Of a DNA stretch of 64,000 nucleotides, positions 1-48,265 are shown one piece after another. The translations under genes and the position numbers were made by a program. The DNA comes from Deltaproteobacteria bacterium (GTDB taxonomy: Bacteria; Myxococcota_A; UBA9160; UBA4427), in assembly GCA_029261835.1 (NCBI GenBank), contig JAJDAO010000026.1, positions 260,666 through 324,665 of the forward strand, read 5' to 3'. The notes below the pieces were generated by a model. The model ran no database searches. It saw only the letters and a program-made list of their open reading frames with translations, and was not told the origin of the DNA. Every line of letters starts with the position of its first letter. The first letter of the stretch is position 1.

Positions 1-313
1 CCGAAGGATCCTTATCCATCGCGAGATCCTGCGGCTCAGCCGGATTCTCGCTGACATTCTCTTGGGAGCCGGACTCGGCCTCTTCCGACCGCAGCTCGGT
101 GCCCTCTTCGCCAGGCGTCGCGTCGGCCAGCTCGGCCGAGGTCTCCTCCTCCCGCTCGTCCTCCTCGAGGACCGGGTTCTCCTGGAGCTCCTGCTCGACC
201 AGATTCACGAGTTCGAGCTGGTTGAGCTGGAGCAGCTTGATCGCCTGCTGCAGCTGGGGCGTCATGACCAGCTGCTGCGTCAGCCGCAGCTCCTGTTTGA
301 GTTCGATTGCCAT
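1..313 (-). CDS. rpoN: RNA polymerase sigma-54 factor, N-terminal part (gene runs off the left edge)
   Basis: It is open-ended, so it is absent from the ORF track. My minus-strand translation from the ATG (complement of 311-313) gives [51 protein letters not shown], followed by an acidic linker. This is the Gln/Leu-rich region I signature of sigma-54. The gene lies directly downstream of lptB, as in the conserved lptCAB-rpoN arrangement. Confidence 0.85.
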
Positions 314-24920: not shown

Positions 24921-24952
24921 TCAGTTACACTCGCCGTCAGGTCGATACCCCG

Positions 24953-29486: not shown

Positions 29487-29515
29487 AGCTTAGTTATTGT
29501 GCATAGTTCAGTCAA
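29487..29515 (-). promoter_or_regulatory. candidate sigma-70-type promoter for the rhomboid gene
   Basis: The minus strand reads TTGACT-17 nt-TAAGCT inside a short AT-rich patch of an otherwise GC-rich intergenic region. The -10 element is weak. Confidence 0.25.
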
Positions 29516-29583
29516 CTTCCGGAGCGCTACCGCCGGCCGTGCCCGGTCGGCCTCAGCGCCCGCTCGGGTGTTTGCCGGTGCGC

Positions 29584-30105: not shown

Positions 30106-30163
30106 GCAGCGCAGGCTAGCCTGAAATCGTCACGCCGGTTCGCATTTCGAAGGAGAGGCGTCC

Positions 30164-30811: not shown

Positions 30812-30836
30812 CCGCTCTGACGCACAGCGGTCCGAC

Positions 30837-32120: not shown

Positions 32121-32174
32121 TGCCCCGTTGCTAACCCGCCTGCCCCGCTCCTGTCAAGCAGACAGATTCGTCGT

Positions 32175-34865
32175 CTAGAAGATGTCATCGCGCAGTGCTC
32201 TCTGCGCATCGCTGTCCGAATCGCGCTCACTGACACTGCGACTCGGTGCCGTTCCCTCGATGAAGGGCTGGAAATACGCGTCAGCGCTGCCCGCGTCGGC
32301 GATCAGCCCGGTGTTGCGGTCGATGCGCTCGAACACGATCTGGTGCCTGGGGACGTCGAAGTCGCGAACCGGAACCGAGGCCAGCGCCACCCGCATGAAG
32401 CCTCTCCAGATGGGCAGTGCAGCCCCCGCACCGGTTTCGCCGAAGCCGAGCACCTGGTTGTCGTCGTGTCCCACCCAGACCCCGGTCGTGATCTCTGGCG
32501 AGAAGCCCATGAACCAGGCGTCGCCCTGCTCGTTGGTCGTTCCCGTCTTGCCCGCCAACGGGCGGCGCAGCGAGCGCAGTCCGCGGCCGGTTCCCTCCTG
32601 CACGACCGCCTTGAGTAGGTCGCACATCAGGTAGGCGGCCGCCTCGGAGATGACCTCGTCACTGGGCATGATCTCCGCATCCGGGTAAGCGGGCATGTCT
32701 TGACCCGCGCCGGACAGCGGTCGTAGCACGGGCGGCGGCGGCTCGCCGAGCGGGACATCCTCGAGCAGCACCTGGCCAGAGTGCTCGGTCACCCGCGTGA
32801 TGAAGCGCGGCACGACACGCCGTCCGCGATTGGGAAAGACCGCGTAGGCGGTGGTGAGCTCGAGCAGTGTCACGGAGCTGGAACCCAGTGCCAGAGAGAG
32901 ATCGCGACTGAGCGGCGACCGGATTCCGAAGCGGCGTGCGTAGTCGATCACGAAGTCGACGCCCACATCGCGAAAGAGGTGTACGGTCGCGTTGTTGACC
33001 GACTTCTTGAGCGCGTTGCGCAGCGGGATGGGGCCGTAGAAGTGCCGGCCGTAGTTGCGCGGTGCCCAGACGAAGCCCGAGATGGGATCCGTGTAGACCA
33101 CCGGCCGATCCACCACTTCGGACACGGGTGTGTAGCCCTTCTCCAATGCCGCTCCGTAGATGAACGGCTTGAAGGCCGAGCCGGGCTGGCGCAGCGCCTG
33201 GGTTGCGCGGTTGAATTCACTATGCGTGTAGTCGTAGCCGCCGACCAGCGCCAGGACGTCGCCGGTCGCGGTGTCGAGCGAGAGGAGCGCGCCCTCGACG
33301 ATGGGCAACTGAAACAGGCCGAGGCGCGGCAGCGGCAGCGCGTTCTCCTCGTTCTCGTCCATCGGCTCTGTGCCCGGCTCCGGCTCTTCGACCGGCAAGT
33401 CTTCGAGGCGTACGAAGCGGGCGACATCGCCCGCACGAAGAATCCTGTCGATCTCTTTGACAGGCCGCGGTCGCCGCTTTGGGTGCACCTCACGGGCCCA
33501 GCTCACGTCTTCGAGCCGCACCGTACCCTCGACGCCCGGCGCGAAGCTCACCCGCGCGCTCTGGGCGGCGCCATCGACCTCGGTCACGATCCCGAGCAGG
33601 GGCTCGTCGAAGGGAAGTGTTGGCACCTGGATGATGGCCTCGTCCTCCGCCTCGTCCTCCACCTCGCCCTCCGGCGCTGCACCAACCGGCGCATCTTCGG
33701 CCGTCTCGGCGATCTCCATCTCGGGTGCTCCGTCGATCGGCGTGTCGATCGGTGCGTCGACAGGCGTCGCGGGCTCTTCGTCGACGGGTTCGAGCCACTT
33801 CGCGTTGGCCTCGGCGAGCCGGTCGATCTCGAGGTAGATCTCGCTCTGCGCCACCTGTCGCACCGGTCCGCGGAAGCCGCGGCGCTTGTCGTGGGCCTCG
33901 AGACCGCGCCGCAGCGAGGCCACCGCGGATCTTTGCAGATCGATGTCCAACGTCGTTTCGATCACCAGTCCGTTTCGCAGCACGGAGTCGCCGCCGAGTC
34001 GATCGAAGAGATAGCGGCGCACTAGCTCGGCGAAGTGCGCTGCCGGCGCCAGGCCCTCGTCCTCGACCGCGCCCTGGATGACGGGCGGACTCGCCATGGC
34101 CTCCTCGTACGCCGGCCGATCGATGAAGTCGTCCGCCAGCATGCGCTCCAGCACGTAGCGACGCCGTTTCTCTGCACCCGCCGGATCGCGATACGGAGAG
34201 TATTCGGAGGGGCGCTGCGGCAAGCCGGCCAGCAGGGCCGACTCCGAAAGCGTGAGGTCTCTGACCTGCTTGCCGAAGTAAGAGCGGGCCGCCTGCCCGA
34301 TCCCCCAGGCGCCGTGGCCGAAGTAGATCTGGTTTACGTAGAGGTAGAGGATTTCGTCCTTGGTGAAGTGACGCTCGATGCGACGCGCGAGAATCATCTC
34401 GCGAATCTTTCGGCGAAAGGTGCGCTCGGGTGAGAGCAGCAGGCTCTTCACCATCTGCTGGGTGATGGTGCTGGCACCCTGCTTGATCGAGCCGCCGGCG
34501 CGCAGGTTGGCGAGTGCGGCACGCAGTATGGAGGTGTAATCGAGTCCGCCGTGTTCGAAGAACGACTTGTCCTCTGCGGCCGCGAAGGCGAGCTGCACGT
34601 GACGCGGAATCTCGTCGATCTGGACCAGCCGGCGTTTCTCGTGAAAGAATTCGCCGATCGGCCGCCTGTTGCGGTCGAGCACGATGCTCGTGACGGGCGG
34701 GTTGTAGTCCGCGATACGCCGCAGATCGGGCAGATCCCTCAGGAATTGATAGTGGAACGCCCACCCGCCTGCCCCCGCTGCGAGGCACAGGGCGACGACT
34801 GTTGTCAGCACGACCCGCTTGGCCCGGGACTGGACGAAAGGCATGCGAACTCCAGCGGTTGCCAA
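32175..34865 (-). CDS. mrcA: penicillin-binding protein 1A (bifunctional transglycosylase/transpeptidase)
   Basis: The GT51 motifs are AAEDKSFFEHGG, GASTITQQ and RKIRE. The transpeptidase motifs are SAFKP, SVN and KTGTT. An acidic insert lies between the modules. Confidence 0.95.
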   Translation of the reverse strand: MATAGVRMPFVQSRAKRVVLTTVVALCLAAGAGGWAFHYQFLRDLPDLRRIADYNPPVTSIVLDRNRRPIGEFFHEKRRLVQIDEIPRHVQLAFAAAEDKSFFEHGGLDYTSILRAALANLRAGGSIKQGASTITQQMVKSLLLSPERTFRRKIREMILARRIERHFTKDEILYLYVNQIYFGHGAWGIGQAARSYFGKQVRDLTLSESALLAGLPQRPSEYSPYRDPAGAEKRRRYVLERMLADDFIDRPAYEEAMASPPVIQGAVEDEGLAPAAHFAELVRRYLFDRLGGDSVLRNGLVIETTLDIDLQRSAVASLRRGLEAHDKRRGFRGPVRQVAQSEIYLEIDRLAEANAKWLEPVDEEPATPVDAPIDTPIDGAPEMEIAETAEDAPVGAAPEGEVEDEAEDEAIIQVPTLPFDEPLLGIVTEVDGAAQSARVSFAPGVEGTVRLEDVSWAREVHPKRRPRPVKEIDRILRAGDVARFVRLEDLPVEEPEPGTEPMDENEENALPLPRLGLFQLPIVEGALLSLDTATGDVLALVGGYDYTHSEFNRATQALRQPGSAFKPFIYGAALEKGYTPVSEVVDRPVVYTDPISGFVWAPRNYGRHFYGPIPLRNALKKSVNNATVHLFRDVGVDFVIDYARRFGIRSPLSRDLSLALGSSSVTLLELTTAYAVFPNRGRRVVPRFITRVTEHSGQVLLEDVPLGEPPPPVLRPLSGAGQDMPAYPDAEIMPSDEVISEAAAYLMCDLLKAVVQEGTGRGLRSLRRPLAGKTGTTNEQGDAWFMGFSPEITTGVWVGHDDNQVLGFGETGAGAALPIWRGFMRVALASVPVRDFDVPRHQIVFERIDRNTGLIADAGSADAYFQPFIEGTAPSRSVSERDSDSDAQRALRDDIF

Positions 34866-35091
34866 ATCCTAGCCCCGATTGTTCAGGAAGCGCCTGCGAT
34901 GAGGCTGCACTCTCTCGCTACGGACCACAGTACGGCGTCGAGGCTAGCCGAGGCCGACCAGCCTGCGCTACCGCTTTGGGGTCGTGGGGCGGGGGCAAGG
35001 GGCCGCTTCGCGGTCGACTCTTGTCGCTGCTCGAATTCAGCAGTCGCGACACGGTGAGGATCGAACAACAATAGTGAAGGGGACGTTCCCG

Positions 35092-36063
35092 ATGGCAGCG
35101 CGCTCGCTCCGCATGGCATTCGTCATGGATCCCGTCGAGTCCGAGGACATCGACGCTTCGACGACTTTCGTGCTGATGCTCGAGGCGCAGCAGCGCGGGC
35201 ACGAGGTCCTGTACGTCGACCCGGCGGACCTGTGCGTCATCGAGGGTGAGCCCGCGGCCCGGGCCACCGGCGTCCGTTTGTGCCGAGAACGCGGACAGCA
35301 CGTGGCGCGGCACGACACACGGCTCGTGATTCTCGATCGTGACGTGGATGTCGCGTTCCAGCGCGTCGACCCCCCGGTCGACGCGGACTATGTCGTTGCC
35401 AGCCAGATCCTCGACCTGTGCCGGCGCACACTCGTGCTCAACCGTCCGACCAGCGTCGTGGCCTACAACGAAAAGCTGCTGGCGTTGCACTTTCGCGATC
35501 TGATGCCGGAGACGACGGTGACGCGCCGCATCGTCGACCTGCACGCCTTCATGGACGCCATGGGGGGCGAAATGGTCGTCAAACCGCTGGATGGCAAGGG
35601 TGGCGAAGGTGTCTTCCACGTCGCCAAGGGGGAGCGAAACCTCTCCTCGATCCTCGAGCAGATGACGGCTTTCGAGAGCCGCCCCGTAATGGCGCAGCGT
35701 TACCTGCCCGATATTCGGCAGGGGGACAAGCGAATCCTCTTGCTCGAGGGCGAGCCGCTCGGCGCTGTCCTGCGGGTGCCGGCCGAGAGCGAGGTGCGGG
35801 CGAATCTTCACGTCGGCGGGCGGGCGGCGCGGGCCGACATCAACCCGGCCGATCAGCGGATCATCGAGCGTCTCGCACCACGGCTGCGGCGTGATGGCCT
35901 GTTCTTGGTCGGTATCGACGTGATCGGAGGCCTCCTCACCGAGGTCAACGTCACTAGCCCAACGGGCATGCAAGAGATCAACGCGCTCGATGACACGCAG
36001 CTGCAGGCGCGCGTAATCGACCGCGTCGAGGAACTGCTCCGCCCGCCCGCCCCCTCTGCCTGA
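35092..36063 (+). CDS. gshB: glutathione synthetase (prokaryotic ATP-grasp type)
   Basis: It reads MAFVMDPVESEDIDASTTFVLMLEAQQRGHEV..., NEKLLAL, VVKPLDGKGGEGVF, GDKRILLLEGEP, RANLHVGG and LTEVNVTSPTG. The start is at ATG 35092. Confidence 0.9.
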   Translation: MAARSLRMAFVMDPVESEDIDASTTFVLMLEAQQRGHEVLYVDPADLCVIEGEPAARATGVRLCRERGQHVARHDTRLVILDRDVDVAFQRVDPPVDADYVVASQILDLCRRTLVLNRPTSVVAYNEKLLALHFRDLMPETTVTRRIVDLHAFMDAMGGEMVVKPLDGKGGEGVFHVAKGERNLSSILEQMTAFESRPVMAQRYLPDIRQGDKRILLLEGEPLGAVLRVPAESEVRANLHVGGRAARADINPADQRIIERLAPRLRRDGLFLVGIDVIGGLLTEVNVTSPTGMQEINALDDTQLQARVIDRVEELLRPPAPSA

Positions 36064-36145
36064 GTCCGCACCGCGGCATCCCCGAGAGGGCTCAAGCCGA
36101 CTCGGCCGCGACCCAGTGGGCAAATCAGGCTAGTCTCAGACAGCC

Positions 36146-37633
36146 ATGAGCGAGATCCAGGGTGCGCGCCCCAGCGACGACATTCGTCCTTACGGAATCC
36201 TGATCGTCGACGACGAGCCGGCGATCCTCGAGTCGTTGGAGTTCACCCTGGGTGCGGAGTACCGCATTCTCACTGCGCAGACGGGTGAGGAGGGACTCGA
36301 AATCCTCGACCAGGAGGAGATCGCGCTGGTGATCTCCGACCAGGTGATGCCGGGGATGAGTGGCGTGGAGTTCCTCGAGAAGGTCATCGAGCGCAATCCC
36401 CGCGCCGTCCGCATGATTCTGACGGGCTACGCGGACGTCTCGTCTCTGGTTCGCGCCATCAACGAGGGGCGGATCTATCGCTACATCCCCAAGCCGTGGG
36501 AGCCCGATGAGCTGCGCATCAATGTCAGACGTGCCCTCGAGTCCTTCGAGCTGATCTCGCAGAACACCCGGCTCACGGCGGATCTCGAGGACGCGAACGA
36601 GCGCCTGAGAGCTGAGAACCTCTACCTGCGCCGCGAGGTGGAGGGCCGCTACTCGTTTACGGAGATCATCGGTGACAGCCCGGCCATGCAGCGGGTCTTC
36701 GATGTCACGCAGAAGGTGGCGGAGACCGACGCCACCGTGCTCCTCGCCGGCGAGACCGGCACCGGCAAGGATCTGGTCGCGCGCGCCATCCATTACTCTG
36801 GACCGCGCAAGGATCAGCGTTTCGTGGCACAGAACTGTGCTGCGCTGCCCGACACACTGCTCGAGAGCGAACTCTTCGGTCACAAGCGTGGCGCATTCAC
36901 CGGCGCCCACGCGGACAAGAAGGGGCTCTTCGAGGTGGCGGACGGTGGCACCATCTTTCTCGATGAGGTGGCGGAGACCGAGCCGGGCATGCAGGTTCGC
37001 CTGCTGCGCGTGCTCCAGGATGGAGAGATTCGCCCACTGGGCTCTTCGGAAACGATCAACGTCGACGTGCGGGTGGTCGCCGCGACCAACCGCGACCTGC
37101 GCCGCGAGGTCGAGGAGGGACGTTTCCGCGAGGATCTCTACTACCGACTGCGCGTGGTCGAGATCACACTCCCCGCGCTGTGCGAGCGCCGCCAGGACAT
37201 TCCGGCCCTGGCTCACCACTTCCTCGACAAGGTCAGTCCAAGGATGGGGCGCAAGCTGGCCGGCTTCACCAATGCGGCGATGGATCGCCTGGTCGCCCAC
37301 GACTGGCGGGGCAACGTGCGCGAGCTCGAGAACGAGATCGAGCGGATCGCCGCTCTGGCGGGGCTCGAGGAGACGATCGGCGTCGAGATGCTCTCGGAGC
37401 GCATCCGCGGCGCGAAGCCGAGCGCAGTTCAGAGTGGGGCCGACGTTGTGCCGTTAACGGACTGGGACCTCAATCGATCCGTGGACGGCCTCAAGAGGCG
37501 TATGATCATCGAAGCCGTGCGAAGAGATGGCAGCAAGACACGCGCCGCCGAGCGTCTCGGGATTCCGCGCCAGTCGCTGCAGAAGATGATGAAGCGACTC
37601 GAGATCAGCGACGACGACGTGAAGGGCGGCTGA
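36146..37633 (+). CDS. sigma-54-dependent response regulator (NtrC family enhancer-binding protein)
   Basis: A REC domain (ILIVDDEP...[10 protein letters not shown]) is followed by AAA+ motifs: Walker A GETGTGKD, the GAFTGA loop (KRGAFTGAH) and RVVAATN. A C-terminal Fis-type HTH ([22 protein letters not shown]) completes it. Confidence 0.95.
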
Positions 37634-37711
37634 GGTCGCTGCTCGCCGCGAGGCGAGCGAGATGAGTGAGTTGAATCGTCCGGGCCGGATCCGGGCTGAA
37701 ACGGAGGCACG

Positions 37712-38239
37712 ATGGAGACCATCCACACCGCCAGCTTCGACTCCTCCATCGGCCAGCTGTCCGTCGCCTCCACGCAGTCGGGCCTCGCCCACCTGGCGCT
37801 GCCCTGCGCTGCCGGCCGGGGGCTCGCGGGTTGGCGCCAGAGCCACTATCCGCAGGCCGAGCTGCGTGAGGGTTACGAACCCAACCGGGTGGCGATCCAA
37901 CAGATCAGCGAGTTTCTTGACGGCAAGCGGGAGATCTTCGATCTGCCGCTCGACTTGCGGGGCACTGCCTTTCAGGTCGAGGTCTATCGCGAGGTGGCAG
38001 CGGTCCCGTACGGCGAGTGGCGCTCGTACGCCGAGGTCGCGCGTCGGCTCGGCCGTCCAAAGGCCTTTCGCGCGGTGGGGGCCGCGAACGCCGTCAACCC
38101 GATCCCGCTGGTGATCCCCTGCCACCGCGTCTTGGCCAGCAACGGTCAGCTCCAGGGCTACGCGGGCGGCCTGGCCCTCAAGGCCCGACTGCTCGCCATG
38201 GAGAACGCATCGCGGCCGGACCAGGGACAGCTCTTGTAG
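37712..38239 (+). CDS. ogt: methylated-DNA--protein-cysteine methyltransferase
   Basis: The active site IPCHRV and the preceding YGEWRSYAEVARRLG..AFRAVGAANAVNPIPLV are present. Confidence 0.9.
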   Translation: METIHTASFDSSIGQLSVASTQSGLAHLALPCAAGRGLAGWRQSHYPQAELREGYEPNRVAIQQISEFLDGKREIFDLPLDLRGTAFQVEVYREVAAVPYGEWRSYAEVARRLGRPKAFRAVGAANAVNPIPLVIPCHRVLASNGQLQGYAGGLALKARLLAMENASRPDQGQLL

Positions 38240-38267: not shown

Positions 38268-38300
38268 CGTGCAACGCATGCGTGTCGTGTGCGTTGCACG
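38268..38300 (+). terminator. strong hairpin downstream of ogt (possible terminator without a U-tract)
   Basis: A perfect 11-bp stem CGTGCAACGCA / TGCGTTGCACG encloses an 11-nt loop. No T-run follows, so its function as an intrinsic terminator is uncertain. Confidence 0.35.
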
Positions 38301-38389
38301 CGGAGTCCGGCGCTGCACGGTATCGCGACGCACCGTCACGAGTAATCCGGGCTAGCCTCCGCCCACTCGCCGCCTTAAACTTCGCCCCC

Positions 38390-39637
38390 ATGTCGAAGAT
38401 GACGATGAGCGCGATTGGGCTGATCCTGGCGGCTGCCGGGTTCTTCTTGGGTGAATACAGCGAGTCGCATAGATCGCCTCGGGCGCTGGCGCCGCTTCCC
38501 GCTCCTGCGAAGCTCACCGCCTCGCAGCAAGCCGCTCCCGGGAGCATTCGAGCGCTGATTCGCGAGCCCGACGCATTTGTGCGGGCGGTCGGACTCGCGA
38601 GCGAGCTCCCGAAGCTCGGCCCGGATGCGGTACCAGAGGTGCGCGATGTGTTGGCCCACGAGATGCTCGGCATGGGGGCCGCCGAGGTCACACTCCTGGT
38701 TCGCTTCTGGGCACTGCATGATCCCGCGGCCGCCACGCGATGGTCGTTCCGCCACGCGCCGATCGCCTATCGCGGCGCCGTGATTTCGCCCAGCATCGAG
38801 CTCTGGGCCTACCGCGACCCCAAGGCCGCGCTCGAAGAGATCCTGCTCATGGCCGCCGCCAAGGGGCCCAACATCGCGGCCGCTGAGAAGGCATTGGTGA
38901 AAGGCTGGTTCAAGTCGGGCAAGCCCGGCCTGACCGACTACATACGTGACCTGGGGCCGAGTCTTGCTCGGCAGCGCGCGCTTGCGGTCTTCGCCCGCGA
39001 GTTCATTCGGCACGATGGCCCCCAGGCGGTCATGAGCTGGGCCGAACGGATTCCCGCTGAGCCGAAGCGATTCAAGCTCGGTGCCTATCGCCAGGTCGGC
39101 CGTGAGCTGGCCCGAGAGGATTTCCCGTCCGCCAAGGCGTGGTGCGAGACGCACTGTGAGGGCCCCTTCGGGGCGGATGTCCGCGGGCTGATCGCGAATC
39201 TGCGCGCTCGGCAGGATGGCCCGAGCACGATGCAGTGGGTCGCCAATGCGCCGGCTGGAGTCGAGCGTGATCGGGCCGCCGAGAGGGCTTTCGAGGGCTG
39301 GATGCGCGCGGATCATGAAGGTCTCGAGCAATGGATGAGCGAGATGGGCCCCGATGGCGTCGAGCCCTGGTTCAGGCCTGCCTTGCGACACTATGCGATG
39401 TGGGTCTCGACGGAGGATCCCGAGAAGGCCATCAGGTGGCTCGAGCAGGCTGAGGATGGCGTGCAGAAGGCATCCGCCTACGTCTACGTCGGGCAGCAGT
39501 GGCTCCGGCTCGATGAGAAGGCAGCCGAAGCCTGGCTGCTGAACTCACCGCTCTCCGAAAAGATGAGGGCCAAGGTGCGTGAGCCCGGTCCCCTGCGGCG
39601 CAGCAAACAGAAGGCCCCCGTCGCCGCACCCCAGTAG
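38390..39637 (+). CDS. membrane-anchored alpha-helical repeat protein, unknown function
   Basis: An N-terminal TM (MSAIGLILAAAGFFLG) is followed by helix-rich sequence with many recurrent x-W motifs. No recognisable catalytic motif is present. Confidence 0.5.
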   Translation: MSKMTMSAIGLILAAAGFFLGEYSESHRSPRALAPLPAPAKLTASQQAAPGSIRALIREPDAFVRAVGLASELPKLGPDAVPEVRDVLAHEMLGMGAAEVTLLVRFWALHDPAAATRWSFRHAPIAYRGAVISPSIELWAYRDPKAALEEILLMAAAKGPNIAAAEKALVKGWFKSGKPGLTDYIRDLGPSLARQRALAVFAREFIRHDGPQAVMSWAERIPAEPKRFKLGAYRQVGRELAREDFPSAKAWCETHCEGPFGADVRGLIANLRARQDGPSTMQWVANAPAGVERDRAAERAFEGWMRADHEGLEQWMSEMGPDGVEPWFRPALRHYAMWVSTEDPEKAIRWLEQAEDGVQKASAYVYVGQQWLRLDEKAAEAWLLNSPLSEKMRAKVREPGPLRRSKQKAPVAAPQ

Positions 39638-39660
39638 GAGCCCGCTGTCGAGAGCGGGGA

Positions 39661-39984
39661 TCACCAGCCGCGCCAAACGATCTCGCTCCCGACTGCGTAG
39701 AGTCGACACGGCGACTGCATTCGACGCAGTCCCCGGCGCTTCAGGCACTCCTGCAGCGCGGCCTGCTCCGCCTCGGCGGATGACGCCTGCCCCCCCGCGG
39801 CGCCCGAGACCCAGACGTTGTGCGGGTCGCCCGCGATGGCGAGCGCCCGTGCCTCCGGCAGGCTGAGGTATTGCTTCCAGACTCTGGCGAGCCCGGGCGG
39901 GGGCCTGTCGGCGCCCGAGGCGCAGGCCAGCACTGCCGGGATGAGGAGCCAAGGAACGGCCAGGCGAAGAGGGGAGAACTTCAT
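39661..39984 (-). CDS. small lipoprotein, unknown function
   Basis: It has a signal peptide with a lipobox (VLACASG). The mature part carries conserved-looking Cys residues (QECL...SPCRLYA). Confidence 0.5.
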   Translation of the reverse strand: MKFSPLRLAVPWLLIPAVLACASGADRPPPGLARVWKQYLSLPEARALAIAGDPHNVWVSGAAGGQASSAEAEQAALQECLKRRGLRRMQSPCRLYAVGSEIVWRGW

Positions 39985-40029
39985 CGCGTATCGGAGAGCC
40001 TAGCAAGCAGGCTGCGGAAGAAGAGAAGA

Positions 40030-40063
40030 AGAGAAAAGGCGGGCCGACCGAAGTCGACCCGCC
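40030..40063 (-). terminator. rho-independent terminator of the IPTL-CTERM-like gene
   Basis: On the minus strand an 11-bp GC-rich stem (GGCGGGTCGAC...GTCGGCCCGCC, one mismatch) with a TTCG loop is followed by TTTTCTCTTC. It lies about 43 nt after the stop at 40106. Confidence 0.55.
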
Positions 40064-40105
40064 TTCCCCTTGTTTCCTATATATCTTGCTACTGCCGGCG
40101 CTCGC

Positions 40106-41242
40106 TCAGCTGGCAGTGGCCGTGGCGCGACGAACCATTACGAGCGTCGCACCCGTGACCAACGCCACGAGCAGCAGAATGGCACCACGCGAGAGCGTCG
40201 GTACGAACGTCGCCGGGAGCCCGAGCGTGAGGTTGAGCCAGCTCCGGTTCGCGTTCGGTCCGCTACCGGCTCGCATGCTCACGCCACTGGATACGAGCGA
40301 GATCGTGCCGAAGCCATTGACTCGGCCATCCGAGCCCGAGAGGACCATCAGCTCAGTGCCGGCGCCAGCCGTGCTCCTGGCTTCGACCGTGATCTTGCCA
40401 GTCGTCCAGGGGCCGCCCCAGCTGGTCGCGGTGTTGGCAACACCAGGCCCGAGACCAGTCGGGGTCGCGCTGAGGATCAAGCCGTTCGCGGCCACATTGA
40501 CCCCGAACAATCCGGGGTTCGGAGCCCCACCGGGGGTGCTCACCACGGTGCCGAAGGGGCCACCAATGACCGCGTTCGAAGCCGGTGTCACCAAGGCGAA
40601 GGCGGCGACGCAGCCTGCGTTCGTCGCGATATTGCAGGGAGCGGGAACGGGGCCGGCGAAAGCGAGGTTAACTGGTCCCGCGAGCTTGGCTGAAGCCGTG
40701 CCACCAAACTGATTCAGAGTCTTGGTGTACTTCATGCGTCCGGTGCTGGGGAGCGTCGTCGCGACCGGATTGGGGCAGCCGGGGTTGAAGCCGGTAGTGG
40801 GGCCGCCAGTGGGGAGCGGGCGTCCGGGGCACCATGTCACGGTCGAGGGTCCGGTTCGGCCGCTCTTGGCGAAGGTCGCTGAGACCCTGGGCACCTTGAA
40901 GCCAATTGAAGTGCCCACCTGGAAGACCTTCGGGTTCGCCAGGAACACGGGGCCGACACCCGGCGCCTGCGCTCTGGTGAGCTGCGACGGCGCAATCGTC
41001 AGTTTCTTCGGGTCTGCGCCGTTCGTCTGCTGTGCCGTTGCCCCGGGAATCGCGAGAATCTTGCCAACCGGGGCCGCGGGGGTGAACCCGAACGGAAGCG
41101 GAAGACCGTTTCCGATCTGGAATCGGGCATTGCCCGAAAGTGAATAAGGCTTGGCCTGGGCAGTCGTCACCCATGCGAAGCCAACTAGCGCGCATGCGAC
41201 CACTACGCATACGAGTCCCGATAAGGGCGCTCTTTGGGACAT
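40106..41242 (-). CDS. secreted Gly/Thr/Pro/Asn-rich protein with an IPTL-CTERM-like C-terminal sorting signal
   Basis: The ATG (complement of 41240-41242) is preceded by AAGGAG. It has a signal peptide (LVCVVVACALVGFAWVTTAQA). The C-terminus reads VPTLSRGAILLLVALVTGATLVMVRRATATAS: a motif, a hydrophobic helix and a basic cluster. Confidence 0.7.
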   Translation of the reverse strand: MSQRAPLSGLVCVVVACALVGFAWVTTAQAKPYSLSGNARFQIGNGLPLPFGFTPAAPVGKILAIPGATAQQTNGADPKKLTIAPSQLTRAQAPGVGPVFLANPKVFQVGTSIGFKVPRVSATFAKSGRTGPSTVTWCPGRPLPTGGPTTGFNPGCPNPVATTLPSTGRMKYTKTLNQFGGTASAKLAGPVNLAFAGPVPAPCNIATNAGCVAAFALVTPASNAVIGGPFGTVVSTPGGAPNPGLFGVNVAANGLILSATPTGLGPGVANTATSWGGPWTTGKITVEARSTAGAGTELMVLSGSDGRVNGFGTISLVSSGVSMRAGSGPNANRSWLNLTLGLPATFVPTLSRGAILLLVALVTGATLVMVRRATATAS

Positions 41243-41260
41243 ATCACATCTCCTTTGATC

Positions 41261-41290
41261 CACTGAAATCCACTGAAATCTGCTGAAATT
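41261..41290 (-). repeat. three tandem 10-bp repeats in the 5' leader, immediately upstream of the RBS
   Basis: The plus strand reads CACTGAAATC CACTGAAATC TGCTGAAATT. As mRNA this is AAUUUCAGCA GAUUUCAGUG GAUUUCAGUG, then GAUCAAAGGAG. Confidence 0.6.
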
Positions 41291-41446
41291 GGGAAAACCG
41301 GAGGACTCGACTCTTGATCCTGCTGATCGTGATCCGCTTTCGATTGACTCTCGATCGATTGACCGATTCTCGTTGTCGCTCGCTCGCTCGTCGCTTCCGC
41401 CGACTGCCACGGTAGTCTCTGCAGCCTCTCTGCAGGTTGCGTACGG

Positions 41447-41462
41447 TGCAACCTGGGTGCCA
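41447..41462 (-). promoter_or_regulatory. sigma-54 (-24/-12) promoter
   Basis: The minus strand reads TGGCAC-CCAGG-TTGCA. This matches the TGGCAC-N5-TTGCW consensus exactly, including spacing. It lies about 200 nt upstream of the IPTL-CTERM-like gene start. Confidence 0.6.
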
Positions 41463-41748
41463 ACCCCTCAGTCCGCCGACACCAGCCTGGAACTCTTCGC
41501 GATTTCAGTCATTTGGGCGATTTCGGCGAGAGTGGGAGGGCACGAGGTTCGGCAGAACCACTGGCGCAGCAAGCCCCGATTTTCCCCGAGCGCCGAGCGC
41601 CCCCACGGGATCGTTGTGAATAGTTCAAGAGTTTCAAATAGTTATGATCCGAGAAGCCGGAGCATTCTGCGCCAGTCGAGATGCTTGCTCCGGCGCGTTC
41701 TGCACCGCGATTGCCTGCTTCCCGCCGACGAGTCGCCTCTGGGGGGGC

Positions 41749-44058
41749 CTAGCCCGCCTGTGACTCGGGCCCAGCGCCGGGCTCCGGCTGTGTCCGTAGC
41801 TTGCGGGCGCGGTCGGCGGCTTCCTCGGCTCGCTCGGGGTCGTTGCGCTGCTGGTGGATACGGCTCAGCAGGTCCAGGGCCTCCGCCCCCCCGCCGAAGC
41901 GCACCGCGCGCTCCGCCAGCGCGAGGGCCTGGGCTGAGTCCGAGCCGTGTTCGAGCTGCAGTTGCGCCAGCTCGGCAGCCGCCTCCGGTCGATACGGATG
42001 CTCCTCGAGCACGGCCTTGAGACGGTCTTCAGCTTCCGGGTATCGGCCAGCGGCCATCAGCGCGCGCGCGGCCCCCAGCTTGGATTGCTCGTCGCCCGGG
42101 TCTGCAGCAGCGGCGCGATCAAAGAGCGAGAGTGCGCTCTCGGGGTCCTGCGCCATGCTCAGCCGACCGAGGCCCGCCAGTGCCCCGGCATTCTCCGGCT
42201 CGAGCTCGGCCGCGCGGCGGTATGCCTGACGGATTTCTTCGCTCGGCGCGCCCGCGAGTTCGAGCGCACGCCCGTGGATCACGTGCAGTGCGGCCGTATC
42301 GGGGTGCTGACCCAGGGCGTCGCGCAGCGTCGCCTGGGCTTCGTCGAGCACGCCGGCCTCGTGGGAGAAGCGCACCAGCGCGTACAGAGCAGCGGCGCCG
42401 CGTGGGTCCTTGAAGTCGACACCCTGTGACTCCCATTGGCGCAGCAGACCGACCGCCGCCGCTGGCCCCGCCCGCCCGTTGCTGCCCTCGGCCGCATGGC
42501 TGAGTGCCTGCGACATCGGCCCTGCGGCCCAAGCCGCGAACTTCAGGAGGGAGCTGCGCAGTGAGGCGGCATCGCCGAGACGCGCCCAGAGACGCAGCGA
42601 AAGCAGCTCCCCCTCCAGATCGATCGGCAACTTCTCCGCCTGCAGGCGCAGCATCGCGAGCGCCTCTGCGGGCTTGCCCTGGGCCAGGTGGAGACGCGCC
42701 AGTCTCGTGCGCGCGTCGGTACCGCCGATGTCGATGCGAAGGCAGTAGCGATACTCCGCGATGGCGCGGTCGAAGTCCCCGAGCGCCTCTGCGGAGACGG
42801 CCGCGTTGTAGCGCGCCCAGGGGTTGTTGGGCCAGAGACGGAACGCCTCGTCGAAGTGCTTCAGCGCTTCGGCGTGCTGATCGCGCTCTTGTGCCACGCG
42901 GGCGCGAATCATCTCCTGATGCTCGGGCACGCTCATTTCCGCCGCAATCTCCAGCGCCCGGTCGAGCTCGCCCGCCAGCAAGAGCGCATCCGCGTGCTCG
43001 AGCAACAGGTTCGGATGGGGTGTTCCCATCTTCCGGGCCAGTGCAATCGCGTGCTGCGACGCATCGGCGGCGGCGGCGTAGTCGCCGAGATCCTCATAGT
43101 GCTTGGCGAGGTCGACCCACGCCGTGACGGCGAGATACGGCCTACTTACCTCAGTCGCTTTCTTGAGGAGCTCCTCTGCCTCTTCGCTTTCGCCTCGGGT
43201 ACGCAGGCGCAACGCCAGTCTGGTCCGGTATTCGCGCGAGCCGGGCTCCTCGGCGGCCGCCCGCTGGAGGATCTCCAGCGAGCGGTCGAAATCCCGCATC
43301 TCGTCGTAGTACCCGATGGAGTGCCCGACCACGTTCGGATGAGCCGGATACTTCTCGATGCAGTCGGCCCAACGCTTCGCGGCCAGCTCGGCCTCGCCAC
43401 TCTCCTGGGCGAAGAGAGCCGCCGTGGCACAGTGCCAGCCCTCGACCTCGGTCCCGAGGTCGGTCTCTTCGATGCGCCGGCTCAGATCTTCGATCGCCGC
43501 CCCGGCCTCGTCGATTCGGTCGAGGCCGATCAGGGCGAGAATCCGCGGCTTCATGGCCTCGGCGTTATCGGGATCCAGCTCGACGACGCGAGCGGCGTCC
43601 GCGAGTGCCAGCTCGTCGTTCTGCCGGGAGTGCGCGTAGGCGTTCGCGCGCATCAGCAGGATCTCCAGATTGTCCGGCTGAACCTCGAGGATCTGGTTCG
43701 TGATCTCGATGGCGGTGGCCACGTTGTTGCTCGCGAGCGCACCAAAGGCGAGCTGGCTGCCCGCCGGAACGAGCCAGTCGGGGTGCTTCGCGGCCTCGCG
43801 TAGCGACCACTCGCCAAGGCTCGGCTGGCCGGACAACGCCAGCGCCCGTCCGTAGAGGTACTGAACCTCCGGGTCATCGACCCGCTCTGCGAGGAGCTGT
43901 CGCAGAGGTTCCAGAGTCGCTTCGAACTCGCCGGCCGCCTGCTGCTGACGAATGTCCTCGAGCGGATCCGATGGGCCACAGCCGGTGCTGCCGAGAAAGA
44001 GAATCTGAGCGGCCAAGCTCACAGCGAGCGGCCAGAGTGACTTTCGGGCGCGAGACAT
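41749..44058 (-). CDS. large TPR-repeat lipoprotein
   Basis: It has a lipobox (LFLGSTGCG) and many Ala/Leu-rich 34-residue TPR-like repeats throughout. The start is at MSRARKSLW. Confidence 0.8.
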   Translation of the reverse strand: MSRARKSLWPLAVSLAAQILFLGSTGCGPSDPLEDIRQQQAAGEFEATLEPLRQLLAERVDDPEVQYLYGRALALSGQPSLGEWSLREAAKHPDWLVPAGSQLAFGALASNNVATAIEITNQILEVQPDNLEILLMRANAYAHSRQNDELALADAARVVELDPDNAEAMKPRILALIGLDRIDEAGAAIEDLSRRIEETDLGTEVEGWHCATAALFAQESGEAELAAKRWADCIEKYPAHPNVVGHSIGYYDEMRDFDRSLEILQRAAAEEPGSREYRTRLALRLRTRGESEEAEELLKKATEVSRPYLAVTAWVDLAKHYEDLGDYAAAADASQHAIALARKMGTPHPNLLLEHADALLLAGELDRALEIAAEMSVPEHQEMIRARVAQERDQHAEALKHFDEAFRLWPNNPWARYNAAVSAEALGDFDRAIAEYRYCLRIDIGGTDARTRLARLHLAQGKPAEALAMLRLQAEKLPIDLEGELLSLRLWARLGDAASLRSSLLKFAAWAAGPMSQALSHAAEGSNGRAGPAAAVGLLRQWESQGVDFKDPRGAAALYALVRFSHEAGVLDEAQATLRDALGQHPDTAALHVIHGRALELAGAPSEEIRQAYRRAAELEPENAGALAGLGRLSMAQDPESALSLFDRAAAADPGDEQSKLGAARALMAAGRYPEAEDRLKAVLEEHPYRPEAAAELAQLQLEHGSDSAQALALAERAVRFGGGAEALDLLSRIHQQRNDPERAEEAADRARKLRTQPEPGAGPESQAG

Positions 44059-44157
44059 GGGCGCAGTAGTATAGTCAGCCGCTCGGCGAGTCAACACGTG
44101 CAATTGGCACCGCCCGCCCGCCTGTGCGTCGTGAGCGACCACTGCGTTCTGTGAGAA

Positions 44158-45588
44158 TTGCCGCTAGCTTTCGACGCTATGTCCAAGCCCGTACTCGAGC
44201 GCCCCTGGCTCTTGCTGGCGATCGGCACAGTGATCGTTCTGGCGCTGCTCTCCACGATCGTCGAGGTGCAGTTTGGCCCGCCCGGGGACCCGCGGCCCAT
44301 CGGCAGCGCAGACGACATCGAGCGATTGCGCGAGCGCAGCGACCTCAACGTGTTGTTCGTTGTGATCGACACGCTCAGAGCGGATCGCCTCGGAAGCTAT
44401 GGGTACGAGCGCGACACCAGCCCCTATCTCGACGGCATCGCGCAGGCGGGCGTGCGCTTTTCCCGCCACCTCTCGCAGTGCTCGTGGACCAAAGCGTCGA
44501 TGGCCTCGCTGTGGACCGGGCTCTATCCGACGCGAAACGGGGTCACGCGCTTCGACCATATCGTGCCGCCCGAGGCCGAGCTGCCCGCCGAGATACTGAA
44601 GCAGGCGGGCTTCTACACCGTGGGGCTCTACCGCAATGGCTGGGTCTCGCCGAACTTCGGATTCGATCAGGGATTCGACGTCTACACGCGCCCGGCCGCA
44701 AGGCCCATGCGCCCCTCGGTACGCGTCGAGAACCCCACCGTCTCGATTCGCGGCACGGACGAGGACGTGATCGCGGCAGGGCTGGAGTTCCTGCGCATTC
44801 ACGGCCATGAACGCTGGTTCCTGTACATGCACTGGATGGATGTGCACGAGTACATCTACGATCAGGAATCGGCGCTCTTCGGCGGCACGTACTCGGACGT
44901 CTACGACAACTCGATCCGCTGGACCGACACCAACATCGGCGTGCTCCTGGAGCACTTGGCGACCGAGGGCTATGCGGAGAACACGCTGGTCATCGTGACA
45001 TCCGATCACGGTGAGGCATTCCTCGAGCGGGGCGTGGAGGGACACGCGCGCCGTGTGTTCCGCGAGTCGACGGAGGTTCCTTTCTTCCTGTCGTTCCCCT
45101 TCCGGCTGGAGTCCGGCGTCGTGGTCGAGACCCGCACGCGCAATGTCGATGTCTGGCCGACCGTGCTCGACCTGCTCGGCCTGTCAACGCAGGCCGGGAT
45201 CGATGGGCGCTCGGCGGTTCCCGAGATTCTGGCCAGTGCGCGCGGGCAGGAGGCGACCCGGCCCGAGCCGACCGCTGTGGCTCATCTGGACCAGAACTGG
45301 GGCCAGACGGGCCGCGAGCCCGAGCCCACCGTTGCCGTCGCGCAGGGCAGCTACCGCTACGTGCGTGCGGTGGAGCTGGGCCGCAGCCGTGAGCAACTCT
45401 TCGATGCTGCACGCGATCCGCGCGAACTCGAAGATCGATCCGAAGCGGAGCCCGAACTCGTCGAGCAGCTTCGCGAGATCGCGGATTCGTATCTGGCTGA
45501 GAAGCCGCCGTGGGGAGCCGCTCCCAAGAGAGAGCTCGGCGAGATGGAGCTGAACCAGCTGCGCGCCCTCGGCTACGCGCTCCCCTGA
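44158..45588 (+). CDS. sulfatase-like hydrolase/transferase (alkaline-phosphatase superfamily), membrane-anchored
   Basis: An N-terminal TM is present. The metal-site motif is NVLFVVIDTLRADRLGSYGY, and SDHGEAF occurs later. The expected C/S-x-P-x-R formylglycine motif is absent; the sequence there reads QCSWTKASMASLWTG. Confidence 0.8.
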   Translation: MPLAFDAMSKPVLERPWLLLAIGTVIVLALLSTIVEVQFGPPGDPRPIGSADDIERLRERSDLNVLFVVIDTLRADRLGSYGYERDTSPYLDGIAQAGVRFSRHLSQCSWTKASMASLWTGLYPTRNGVTRFDHIVPPEAELPAEILKQAGFYTVGLYRNGWVSPNFGFDQGFDVYTRPAARPMRPSVRVENPTVSIRGTDEDVIAAGLEFLRIHGHERWFLYMHWMDVHEYIYDQESALFGGTYSDVYDNSIRWTDTNIGVLLEHLATEGYAENTLVIVTSDHGEAFLERGVEGHARRVFRESTEVPFFLSFPFRLESGVVVETRTRNVDVWPTVLDLLGLSTQAGIDGRSAVPEILASARGQEATRPEPTAVAHLDQNWGQTGREPEPTVAVAQGSYRYVRAVELGRSREQLFDAARDPRELEDRSEAEPELVEQLREIADSYLAEKPPWGAAPKRELGEMELNQLRALGYALP

Positions 45589-45598
45589 TCCGTCACGC

Positions 45599-48265
45599 TC
45601 AGAAAGAGATCATGACCGTCATCCCGTAGGTTCGGGGGTCTCCGAGGAAGTGGATGGTGGTCCGGTTGAACGTGGAAGCGTCGAAGGAGAAGGTCCGATA
45701 CACCTTGTCGCTGATGTTTCGCACCCAGCCGGTGATCTCGATATCGGTGTTTCGCGGTCGGAAGACGGCAGTGATGTTGTGGAGCCAGAAGGCGGGCTGT
45801 CCGATCGTGTTCGGCGGCATGAAGAGCTGCTTCTCATCATTCGGCAGGCCGCGCCCCGCCGACGCATCGAAGAAAGTGTCGTCCGTCCAGACGCCATCGT
45901 ATCTGGCCGTGAACTCGCCCCAGCGTCCCATCTGAAAGGTCTGCTCGCCCGTGAGGCTGACCTTGAGCTGCGGCGAGTTCAGCAGCGGGTTCCCGGTGTG
46001 GTCGATGGCGTTGTTGGTGACGAGGAAGCCGGCCCCGAAGTTCTTCTGGGTAACCTGGTTTTCGACAAAATCGAGGAATTGGCTCTCGAGCCAGCTCATG
46101 CGAGCCCTGACGAGTGCCCCCTCCCACGGCCTTCCGCCCAGGTCGATCTCCGACCCGTAGACCTCCACGTCGCTGGCGTTGATCACGACGAACTCGGGCT
46201 GGGAGCTGAAGTCCTGCTGGACGGTGAAGAGCTGGTAGTTCTGGTAGGCATAGTGGAAGAACGACAGATCGAGGTCCAGCCTGCCGTCGAACCAGCTCCC
46301 CCGTAGGTTCATTTCGAAGGCGTCGTTCTTCTCGGGCCCCGCCGAGGAAAGGCCCGAGCGAATCGAGCTCGTGGCGTTGAAGTGCCCCGCCTTCCAGCCG
46401 CGGGTGTACTTCCAAGAGACGTGCGTGTCCTCTCGGAAGCGATATGTCAGGCGGATGACGCCCGTCGGGGCGCTCCAGGTCTTCTCGGCAAGTTCGAAGA
46501 TGGGAGGCCCACCCTGCCCCGTGCGGAGCTCGTAGTCCACCCCTTTGCGCTCCCAGTTGTACCGCACGCCCCCATCCAGGGTGAAATCGCTCCAGAAATC
46601 CCAGCTCGCCGAGGCGTAGCCGCCGACGCTGTAGGTCTCCTGCGTGTACTCCCGCCTGCCGACCCCCAGCACCGCCGCCGTCAAGTTGAAGTTGTTCTCG
46701 ATTTCCACGTGGAGGTCTTCGGTCAGGAAGATGCCGCCGACTTCCCAATGCACCGGGGCCACTTCGACGAAGTCCCCGGACAGCTCGAGGATCTGGCTGA
46801 ACTGCCAGCCCTCGTCCTTCGCCACGATCTCGAAGAGCACGTTGGGAGAGAAGTCCAGATCGCGGTCGACCAAACGGTCGTAGCCGTAGTAGCCGGTGGT
46901 CGTCTTCAGGAGGAGCCCCTCCGGAAGGCTGATCTCACCTCGCAGCGACGTGCCCCAAGTGTCGTTCTTCAGGGGTCCAACGCGGTTGTAGCTGCCAGAA
47001 CGCGGGTCGATATCGAGATCTGACGCCAGCTCGTTCATGACCTGGATATTCGCCATGTCGACCGCCAAGGCTTCTGCGGCATTCTCGTTCATCCCGGCTG
47101 CGAGCAGAGGCGCCTTTGCGGCCACCCTGGCGCGCTCCCTCATCTCTTTCACGGCGAACGAAATGTACTTCCCGCTATCTCGCCCGCCGAGCGTCCCGAC
47201 GACGGTGGATCCGTCCGGTCCCGTATGCGGGCCCGTCGTCCCATACGCCAGGCCGAGACGACTCAGCTGGTCTCGGCGCGAGCCGTACACGCCGAGCAAC
47301 CAGTATTGGTCCAGAGTTGGCTGGAAGCTGATGTTCGTGCGAGCGGCCCAGTTCCAGGTGTCGTTCACCATCGACGGTAGTCCCACTGGGATAGGCGAGA
47401 TTCCGTCGAAGGACGCGCTCCTTCGCGGTACATCTTCGCCACAGAGCGACCATTCGGGATCCGTTCCCGGGCGCTGGCCGTTCGGCCGAAGCCCGCGTTC
47501 GGAGCGGGGGATCGCATCGCCGCAAAAATTCTTCTGGAAGCCGTCGCGCGATTGGAAGCGGAACGCGACACGCGCCGCCACGATATCCTCGAAGATCGGT
47601 GCCTCTACCGCGCCTTCGTAGTCCCGCGACGCGAAGTTCCCGAAAGAGGCCCGCAGGTAGCCGCCGTAGTCGCCCGTCGGGCGGCGTGAGTACATCTTGA
47701 TCACGCCCGCGGAGGCGTTTCGGTAAGCCCCGATCCCCTGGGGCCCGCGCAGCACGTTGACGGCTTCCATGTCGAAGAACGTCGGGAGCTGCAGCGCCTG
47801 TGCGCTGAGGGGGACATCGTCGAAGTAGAGCGCGATGGCGCTCGCCGAGTTGGCATTGAAGTCGTTGAGACCAACGCCGCGTATGAAGAACGTCGGCGTT
47901 GTCGAGCCCGTCGTCCGGACCTCGAGGTTGGGGGTGAACTGGCCGATATCGGCTACGCTCACCGCCCCTAGGGCTGCGAGGTCGTCGGAGTCGAAGCCCG
48001 CCACCGAGTCACCGGAGGCGAAATCGTCGGCGGTCTCGGATTCGCCCGCGAGGATGACCCTCTCTTCGATGCCCTCCTCGGCGGTGGTCCACTCCTCACT
48101 GGGCTCCTCGTCTTGTTGGGGTGTCGCAGTGTCGGCGGTCGCCGTCGCGGCCTGCGACTCCTCCAGAGCCTCGCCGCGGGCCGAATCCTGCGCCGACACG
48201 GGGCCCGTGTAGATCGATTGAAGCGCCAGAGCGAGGACGACCAGAAACGGCCCGCGGATCAGCAT
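45599..48265 (-). CDS. TonB-dependent outer-membrane receptor
   Basis: It has a signal peptide, a plug domain (FIRGVGLNDFNANSASAIALYFDDVP...NVLRGPQG), a long beta-barrel and a terminal aromatic residue (TVMISF). Confidence 0.9.
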   Translation of the reverse strand: MLIRGPFLVVLALALQSIYTGPVSAQDSARGEALEESQAATATADTATPQQDEEPSEEWTTAEEGIEERVILAGESETADDFASGDSVAGFDSDDLAALGAVSVADIGQFTPNLEVRTTGSTTPTFFIRGVGLNDFNANSASAIALYFDDVPLSAQALQLPTFFDMEAVNVLRGPQGIGAYRNASAGVIKMYSRRPTGDYGGYLRASFGNFASRDYEGAVEAPIFEDIVAARVAFRFQSRDGFQKNFCGDAIPRSERGLRPNGQRPGTDPEWSLCGEDVPRRSASFDGISPIPVGLPSMVNDTWNWAARTNISFQPTLDQYWLLGVYGSRRDQLSRLGLAYGTTGPHTGPDGSTVVGTLGGRDSGKYISFAVKEMRERARVAAKAPLLAAGMNENAAEALAVDMANIQVMNELASDLDIDPRSGSYNRVGPLKNDTWGTSLRGEISLPEGLLLKTTTGYYGYDRLVDRDLDFSPNVLFEIVAKDEGWQFSQILELSGDFVEVAPVHWEVGGIFLTEDLHVEIENNFNLTAAVLGVGRREYTQETYSVGGYASASWDFWSDFTLDGGVRYNWERKGVDYELRTGQGGPPIFELAEKTWSAPTGVIRLTYRFREDTHVSWKYTRGWKAGHFNATSSIRSGLSSAGPEKNDAFEMNLRGSWFDGRLDLDLSFFHYAYQNYQLFTVQQDFSSQPEFVVINASDVEVYGSEIDLGGRPWEGALVRARMSWLESQFLDFVENQVTQKNFGAGFLVTNNAIDHTGNPLLNSPQLKVSLTGEQTFQMGRWGEFTARYDGVWTDDTFFDASAGRGLPNDEKQLFMPPNTIGQPAFWLHNITAVFRPRNTDIEITGWVRNISDKVYRTFSFDASTFNRTTIHFLGDPRTYGMTVMISF

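Follow-up and report, generated by a model that had tools for sequence, protein, structure and literature searches.

The stretch of DNA considered here (64,000 nucleotides of a Deltaproteobacteria bacterium, contig JAJDAO010000026.1, positions 260,666 to 324,665; hereafter the window) carries on its minus strand a gene for a 378-residue, apparently secreted protein, and the question raised by the locus is from which promoter this target gene is transcribed. A first-pass annotation of the DNA had proposed that a sigma-54 promoter of the -24/-12 type drives the gene of this surface protein and that the transcript begins with a leader of about 195 nt. That proposal is strongly supported, since the same type of promoter precedes the orthologues of the gene. 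From sequence comparison, we consider it likely that the motif at 41462-41447 is a genuine sigma-54-dependent promoter of the target gene, with the layout proposed. The locus is a well-supported but ordinary example of a known gene switch, and it reveals no new mechanism.

The -24/-12 element and its conservation

41447..41462, minus strand: sigma-54 -24/-12 promoter element TGGCACCCAGGTTGCA, the sole exact consensus match in the window and the top score of the weight-matrix scan
40106..41242, minus strand: coding sequence of the target gene, a 378-residue protein with signal peptide, all-beta body, C-terminal VPTLS, transmembrane helix and RR
41749..44142, minus strand: upstream TPR gene, 797 residues, conserved same-strand neighbour, PrsT score 120 bits

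Positions 41462-41447 read TGGCAC-CCAGG-TTGCA on the minus strand, exactly as the first-pass annotation had it, with GG at 41461-41460 and GC at 41449-41448. The two dinucleotides are exactly 10 nt apart, and all specified positions of the consensus TGGCAC-N5-TTGCW are matched. The site is intergenic, lying in the 506-nt gap between the stop codon of the TPR gene (41749) and the ATG at 41242, on the strand of the target gene and 205 nt before its start codon. The exact consensus occurs once in the 64-kb window, against 0.02 expected, and is matched in 2 of 100 dinucleotide shuffles; with one mismatch allowed, three matches are found against 1.3 expected. The motif also ranks top, with 16.7 bits, in a scan of the window with an approximate position weight matrix (PWM), whose frequencies were set after the published consensus. 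It had been called the only good sigma-54 site in the window, but a second near-consensus site, TGGCCCGATATTTGCT (3268-3253, minus strand), follows closely with 16.1 bits.

Homologues of the target protein number 69, nearly all from metagenomes and metagenome-assembled genomes. Fourteen loci came from genome assemblies, labelled mostly as Myxococcota, Myxococcales or Deltaproteobacteria, with three Spirochaetales/Spirochaetaceae and one 'bacterium', and a further 64 loci were taken from metagenomes. A relaxed match, in which GG and GC are fixed and at most two other mismatches are allowed, was found 10 times in the 5.3 kb of same-strand upstream DNA of the first 14 loci, whereas 0.53 matches were expected from the rest of these loci (P = 3e-10). 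For the full count, we used 33 non-redundant loci with at least 150 nt of upstream DNA and counted every site that scores 10 bits or more in the 450 nt before the start codon. Such a site is present in 25 of the 33 loci, as compared with 3% of 911 control segments (binomial P = 7e-32), and it is this difference in conservation, not the motif alone, that decides for a promoter. The loci that carry the element belong to divergent orthologues (29-52% protein identity), among which its position and orientation do not change. Aligned, the promoters of the family read (T/A)GG(C/A)AC-N5-TTGCA; GG and GC never vary, and TTGCA stands in 23-25 of the 25 loci. Since related uncultured Myxococcota carry a sigma-54 promoter before the same gene, the motif in the window is very probably a working one, and its conservation upstream of the orthologues marks it as an ancestral, selected feature of the gene family.

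Enhancer-like palindromes and the IHF-like site

41692..41706, either strand: distal enhancer-like palindrome 1, GGTGCAGAACGCGCC (minus), one mismatch
41659..41673, either strand: distal enhancer-like palindrome 2, GGCGCAGAATGCTCC (minus), no mismatch
41632..41644, minus strand: IHF-like site TAACTATTTGAAA (minus) = TTTCAAATAGTTA (plus), within an AT-rich island
41563..41577, either strand: proximal enhancer-like palindrome 3, GGCGCAGCAAGCCCC (plus), one mismatch, starting 115 nt upstream of 41462

Upstream of the -24/-12 element, most orthologues have two GGAAA-N4-TTTCC dyads, 21-23 bp apart, followed by the IHF consensus YAA-N4-TTGATW. This module is very regular and has the classical build of a sigma-54 control region; its typical phasing is -133/-111/-52, or -69/-31 where a single dyad was detected. 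The dyads are present in 17 of the 25 loci with the element (background 0.006 per kb) and the IHF consensus sites in 14 of them (background 0.03 per kb). Instead of these dyads, the window and the loci labelled L005 and L007 (identical to L023) carry a 15-bp palindrome, GGnGCA-N3-TGCnCC. Measured from the first base of the motif, its copies start at -244/-211/-115 in the window, -192/-103 in L007 and -211/-101 in L005, so the distance of the proximal copy (-115, -103 and -101) is nearly equal in the three. The 12-mer GGCGCAGAATGC of palindrome 2 is identical in the window and L007/L023. The other 28 promoter regions lack the palindrome, which has a background of 0.055 per kb in the fetched loci. 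Across the window it occurs at chance level, with six matches against 5.6 expected, but three of the six lie upstream of the motif in a cluster that spans no more than 145 bp. Since the palindromes are common to the window, L005 and L007, clustered, and absent from the other promoters, we read them as a candidate enhancer and consider that the type of enhancer may have been exchanged in the sub-lineage of the window. The first-pass annotation had advised a search for activator sites 80-200 bp upstream; three palindromes came to light, which it had missed and which extend to 41706, beyond its own coordinates.

The sole GGAAA-N4-TTTCC-like match in the window, GGAAGACCGTTTCC at 41100-41113, lies within the target coding sequence, where it encodes a conserved GNGLPLP, and is probably coincidental.

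An AT-rich island with an IHF-like TTTCAA-N4-TTA had also been described, and it is present, with the same motif recurring in the same orientation in orthologues. The island holds AACTATT twice as well as TTTCAA-ATAG-TTA at 41632-41644, which has one mismatch to WATCAA-N4-TTR. Its variant, TAA-N4-TTGAAA, is shared, in the same orientation, by L003, L006 and L008, where only 30-31 nt separate it from the -24 element. The site of the window falls between the distal palindrome pair and the proximal palindrome.

Several observations weigh against the promoter assignment. The PWM scan placed the flagged site first, but its score of 16.7 bits is attained by 6 of 100 dinucleotide shuffles of the window; since 2-6% of shuffled windows equal it in one measure or the other, the motif by itself is suggestive and weakly significant. 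Eight of the 33 homologous loci are without such a promoter, and the GGAAA-N4-TTTCC dyads of most orthologues were not found at the promoter in the window. From the IHF-like site down to the first base of the motif the distance is 182 nt, as against the usual 30-63 nt, and the pattern of the site occurs six times across the window against 5.2 expected. Since the pattern is not enriched, the support for this site comes from its position and from orthology. In addition, no terminator came to light in the stretch that separates the TPR gene from the promoter, and read-through from the TPR gene may thus also contribute to transcription.

With these points taken into account, a sigma-54 promoter is still the reading that we prefer, and it would work as follows. 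Sigma-54 RNA polymerase would be held as a closed complex on TGGCAC-N5-TTGCA, and an NtrC-family enhancer-binding protein (EBP) would probably bind the three GGnGCA-N3-TGCnCC palindromes, 115, 211 and 244 nt upstream of 41462. The IHF-like AT-rich site, with the distal pair on one side and the proximal palindrome on the other, would probably bend the DNA. By hydrolysing ATP, the activator would open the promoter for a start of transcription near 41436. The transcript would consist of an unstructured leader of about 194 nt and the single gene (40106-41242), and would probably end at the hairpin at 40069-40032.

The candidate activator and rpoN

1..313, minus strand: 5' end of rpoN, region I, activator-interacting domain, running off the window edge; 104 codons, Sigma54_AID 60 bits

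Which EBP might bind the palindromes is a question that the window itself invites, since the first-pass annotation had named, as plausible regulators of the surface protein, an rpoN gene, an orphan NtrC-family activator (36146-37633) and an orphan NtrB-like kinase (30837-32120), all in the window. The activator and the histidine kinase were both confirmed. The activator has receiver, sigma-54-interaction and HTH domains, and its best NCBIfam matches are AtoC and NtrC. As for rpoN, the 5' end is there, and the genome thus encodes sigma-54, but only the first 104 codons of the gene lie inside the window: Pfam scans of 46 open reading frames (ORFs) and a regular-expression search for the RpoN box found no full rpoN in the window, only the N-terminal fragment.

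The promoter may be real and its activator may be precisely this neighbouring response-regulator EBP, paired with the kinase, an assignment that we regard as unlikely. In its favour, only 2.5 kb separate the EBP gene from the 3' end of the target gene, AtoC and NtrC are the best matches of the EBP, and the palindromes have GCA/TGC half-sites, as AtoC sites do. However, none of the 24 other target loci of at least 5 kb shows an EBP signature in the fetched DNA (as far as 5-6 kb to either side, contig permitting). The EBP and the kinase, moreover, are not orphans; they are conserved neighbours in one gene block, rhomboid-NUDIX-hydrolase-histidine kinase-PBP1A followed by gshB-EBP-ogt (28550-38239 in the window, compared with L081-L086). 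In relatives whose EBPs are 79-84% identical, the target locus does not come after this block. Across more than 100 clusters the EBP keeps an identity of 70-84%, yet the type of enhancer differs between orthologous target loci. No sigma-54 site and no enhancer motifs were found near the EBP in its conserved block. The scores against the Prs models also fall under the cut-offs, at 358.5 bits against 502.6 for the EBP (PrsR), 93 against 300 for the kinase (PrsK) and 120 against 312 for the TPR protein of the window (PrsT). Since the EBP sits in a block of its own and was not seen at other target loci, with no linkage to the target locus in the other genomes examined, its role as the regulator of the target gene is possible but unsupported.

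In L084, ogt is directly followed by a gene for a Cys/Met pyridoxal-phosphate (PLP) enzyme, which in the window is found at 61268-62455. Since ogt adjoins the PLP gene in L084, the 38-61 kb segment of the window is arranged differently from that locus.

At the other end of the window, lptC-like, lptA-like and lptB-like genes, which between them occupy 427-1239, 1155-2186 and 2190-2780, stand before the 5' end of rpoN. The second near-consensus sigma-54 site, at 3268-3253, is located directly past the stop codon of a GlnE/GlnD-like gene. Some 100 nt further downstream begins a 98-residue ORF (ATG at 3151), which forms the head of the lptC-lptA-lptB-rpoN gene string. Since the site precedes this ORF, sigma-54 may feed into the operon that encodes rpoN.

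The leader, the -12 palindrome and the repeats

41243..41436, minus strand: predicted 5' leader, about 194 nt, its start derived from promoter geometry
41433..41455, either strand: perfect 8-bp inverted repeat CAGGTTGC-N7-GCAACCTG, from the -12 element to about +4
41416..41435, minus strand: CTGCAGAGA-GG-CTGCAGAGA, a predicted 6-bp stem-loop at the 5' end of the transcript
41258..41290, minus strand: tandem 10-nt repeats AATTTCAGCA / GATTTCAGTG / GATTTCAGTG and a partial fourth (GAT), 3.2 copies, abutting the ribosome-binding site
41250..41255, minus strand: Shine-Dalgarno sequence AAGGAG, 7 nt before the ATG at 41242, read from the sequence
41499..41529, minus strand: degenerate CGAAATCGC array of period 9, about three copies, including ACTGAAATC, which is complementary to the leader repeats

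Since transcription is expected 12 nt downstream of the -12 C (41448), we place the start at about 41436, which gives a leader of about 194 nt. The predicted leaders of the orthologues measure 57-249 nt, with a median of 99. The leader of the window is less structured than its shuffles (fold z = +1.61), and an Rfam scan of 40000-43000 at E ≤ 1 gave no match in the leader and weak hairpin-type matches on the terminator hairpin. A structured RNA or riboswitch was therefore rejected for the leader, which is less stable than shuffles and belongs to no Rfam family. A CsrA/RsmA-type leader was rejected as well, as GGA occurs 54 times in the orthologue leaders against 55.8 expected; no csrA gene was seen in the window.

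The inverted repeat over the -12 half, which the first-pass annotation had pointed out, is real at 41433-41455 but is not conserved in the orthologues. An 8-nt arm at this position arose in none of 500 shuffles of the downstream sequence. Over the 25 promoters, however, the best palindrome arm has a mean of 3.56 nt against 3.17 expected. Since this mean is near expectation and the palindrome is not conserved in the 24 other promoters, it was rejected as a feature of the family.

The repeats ascribed to the leader are likewise all present: TCGATTGAC occurs twice (41340-41363), GGATCA has three copies, and the 10-nt array adjoins the ribosome-binding site. No 10-nt repeats were seen on reading through the orthologue leaders, for which no formal repeat scan was made. 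Upstream of the promoter, 41501-41509 is a perfect 9-nt inverted copy of the leader repeats, and the 10-mer CCGAAATCGC of the array at 41499-41529 is also found in L007 at a similar position. In a hypothetical read-through RNA, this array and the leader repeats pair in both the minimum-energy and the centroid folds, while the overall fold is no better than those of shuffles. In the orthologue leaders, GGAT occurs 22 times against 12.8 expected and GGATC 13 times against 4.65 expected. This enrichment of about two- to threefold is exemplified by GCGGATCAC, CAGGATCAA and GTGGATCAA in the window. Judged from the sequence, both the -12 palindrome and the 10-nt repeats of the leader exist, but as peculiarities of this lineage.

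These lineage-specific elements could form a second layer of control over the sigma-54 promoter, with the -12 palindrome as a repressor operator and the 10-nt repeats, together with their inverted copy upstream, serving translational control, although we think this improbable. In transcripts that read through from the TPR gene, for instance, ACUGAAAUC could pair with GAUUUCAGU; alternatively, the repeats could serve an RNA-binding protein. The rarity of the -12 palindrome in shuffles, the perfect 9-nt complement that is paired in both read-through folds, the enrichment of GGAT and GGATC in orthologue leaders and the unusually unstructured leader of the window are all in line with such a layer. 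However, the palindrome is not conserved, the repeats were not seen in the orthologue leaders that were read, GGA is not enriched, the z-scores of the folds are not significant, and Rfam gave no match; all of these observations are also post hoc and concern one sequence.

The gene product and the transcript end

40032..40069, minus strand: 17-bp GC-rich hairpin, 37 nt past the stop codon, terminator-like, with a weak T tract

The strong hairpin after the stop codon suggests a single-gene transcript, which would probably end there. No sigma-70-like promoter was detected in 39500-42000. That the sigma-54 match is a chance one or a non-functional relic, and that the gene owes its transcript to a different promoter or to read-through of the TPR gene, is very improbable: the equally good sites in 2-6% of shuffled windows and the lack of a detected terminator after the TPR gene speak for it, but the element keeps its place and orientation in 25 of 33 divergent orthologous loci, enhancer and IHF motifs accompany it, and the same region yielded no sigma-70-like alternative.

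Judging from its sequence and a structure model, the product appears to be all-beta and secreted, and to end in a tail of the PEP-/IPTL-CTERM type that serves for sorting or anchoring. Pfam and NCBIfam gave no family above cut-off for the 378-residue protein. It had been called IPTL-CTERM-like, and the tripartite shape of the tail (VPTLS, hydrophobic helix, RR) is indeed still visible, but its score with the IPTL-CTERM model (TIGR04174) is 10.9 bits (E = 0.44), under the cut-off of 20.5 bits. The same model gives weak matches in 6 of the 25 family members, with a best E of 0.0011. The PEP-CTERM model (TIGR02595) does not match the protein of the window and matches 2 of the 25 members, at E 0.041 or worse. 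An AlphaFold2 model of the product, built on 25 homologues, is all-beta with a mean predicted local distance difference test score of 79.7, and its comparison with the PDB gave no meaningful match (TM-score at most 0.16).

In their C-terminal tag (alignment columns 601-661), the family members switch between a VP(T/A/S)(L/I)S type, which is IPTL-/MYXO-CTERM-like, and a PEP type (LPEPG...RRR). Five of the 25 members weakly match the 'midcut-by-XrtH' model.

Comparison with known sigma-54 systems

Canonical NtrC-type sigma-54 promoters, such as glnAp2 and nifH, combine upstream activator sites with an IHF bend. The locus in the window shares with them the GG-N10-GC spacing, multiple dyad-symmetric sites 100-250 bp upstream, an AT-rich IHF-type site and GCA/TGC half-sites. 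It differs in that its IHF-like site lies between the distal and proximal palindromes, not between enhancer and promoter. The NtrC site, TGCACC-N5-GGTGCA, also has a polarity unlike that of the window, GGTGCA-N3-TGCACC. The AtoC site is GCTATGCAGAAATTTGCACA (PMC3118216); its GCA/TGC half-sites are like those of the window palindromes, which is a resemblance only.

The closest precedent is the sigma-54 'PEP-CTERM box', which the locus resembles in layout but to which it does not belong by the scores and motifs that mark its members. The genes for PEP-CTERM proteins are reported to form, in most cases, single-gene operons that are preceded by over 200 nt of non-coding DNA (Haft et al. 2006, PMC1569441). 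In Proteobacteria, the box consists of a 17-nt motif 1 that ends in TTTACA and is sometimes repeated, a spacer of about 63 nt and a sigma-54 motif, with about 71 nt (23-221) from there to the start, and it is associated with PrsR, PrsK and the TPR lipoprotein PrsT (PMC1569441). The window locus, with its 506-nt upstream intergenic region, sigma-54 motif and hairpin after the stop codon, has the organisation of such a single-gene operon. Alike are also the secreted protein with a tail of motif, transmembrane helix and Arg cluster; the long upstream region, where an activator motif and a -24/-12 motif precede a leader that measures from tens of nt to about 220 nt; and the genetic association with a large TPR protein. 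Some members of the target family bear a true PEP motif.

The differences are equally clear. No TTTACA or TGTAAA is present in 41243-41760, and the enhancers of the target family are GGAAA-N4-TTTCC or GGnGCA-N3-TGCnCC. The protein of the window falls under the cut-offs for PEP-CTERM and IPTL-CTERM, and its TPR protein, EBP and kinase, examined for the window, fall under those for PrsT, PrsR and PrsK. The host belongs to the Myxococcota, which is not among the genomes described in PMC1569441.

In a wider setting, Francke et al. (2011, PMC3162934), by their title, present sigma-54 as a central controller of the bacterial exterior. A sigma-54 promoter before the gene of a cell-surface protein, and rpoN beside lptC, lptA and lptB, fit this theme; the work itself is a general comparative survey.

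The target family and its conserved TPR neighbour may mark a regulon, so far undescribed, that is the Myxococcota equivalent of the PEP-CTERM box regulon, with the core promoter kept, the enhancer exchanged and, in the lineage of the window, controls of its own perhaps added; we put this forward tentatively, as somewhat doubtful. The added controls may be the -12 palindrome and the inverted GAAATC arrays that flank the promoter and the ribosome-binding site. If this holds, the exchange of enhancers, with two dyads and IHF sites in most lineages and three palindromes in that of the window, implies rewiring to a different activator. Two enhancer types at orthologous promoters would be a small natural case of activator rewiring, which we consider the most interesting aspect of the locus. 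The analysis also offers a concrete regulatory model, comprising promoter, candidate enhancer, IHF-like site, leader and hairpin, for a conserved, uncharacterised family of surface proteins in uncultured Myxococcota, and would extend the known link of sigma-54 to exported, C-terminally tagged proteins to a new clade and new enhancer motifs.

Gene neighbourhood and other loci

The target gene belongs to a conserved block, in the order TonB-dependent receptor, sulfatase, 800-residue TPR protein, target, 107-residue protein and 451-residue protein, with the TPR, target and 107-residue genes reading in one direction. The block occupies 38282-48265 in the window and occurs in many Myxococcota loci, among them L003, L004, L010, L012, L014, L042, L051 and L067. 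The N-terminus of its 107-residue protein is signal-peptide-like.

Two loci depart from this arrangement. In L079 (2471-5113, a metagenomic contig), the target gene is tandemly duplicated, with dyads and a strong sigma-54 site (14.7 bits) at the first copy only; past the stop codon of either copy there is a 12.0-bit match, TGGGACGAAGGTAGCT. In L080 (3034-5158), a translocated copy of the target lies 23 nt behind a sulfotransferase gene, and no sigma-54 site of at least 10 bits was found anywhere in the locus.

Elsewhere in the window, 19749-22119 and 24863-26773 comprise two tandem genes for ArsA-type ATPases and, near them, a gene for a protein with AAA_22 and peptidoglycan-binding domains, which scores 301.7 bits, against a cut-off of 324.5, with the model 'XrtA/PEP-CTERM system-associated ATPase'. 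A gene for a DDE transposase (DDE_Tnp_1 and DUF772) at 9227-10198 indicates an insertion sequence.

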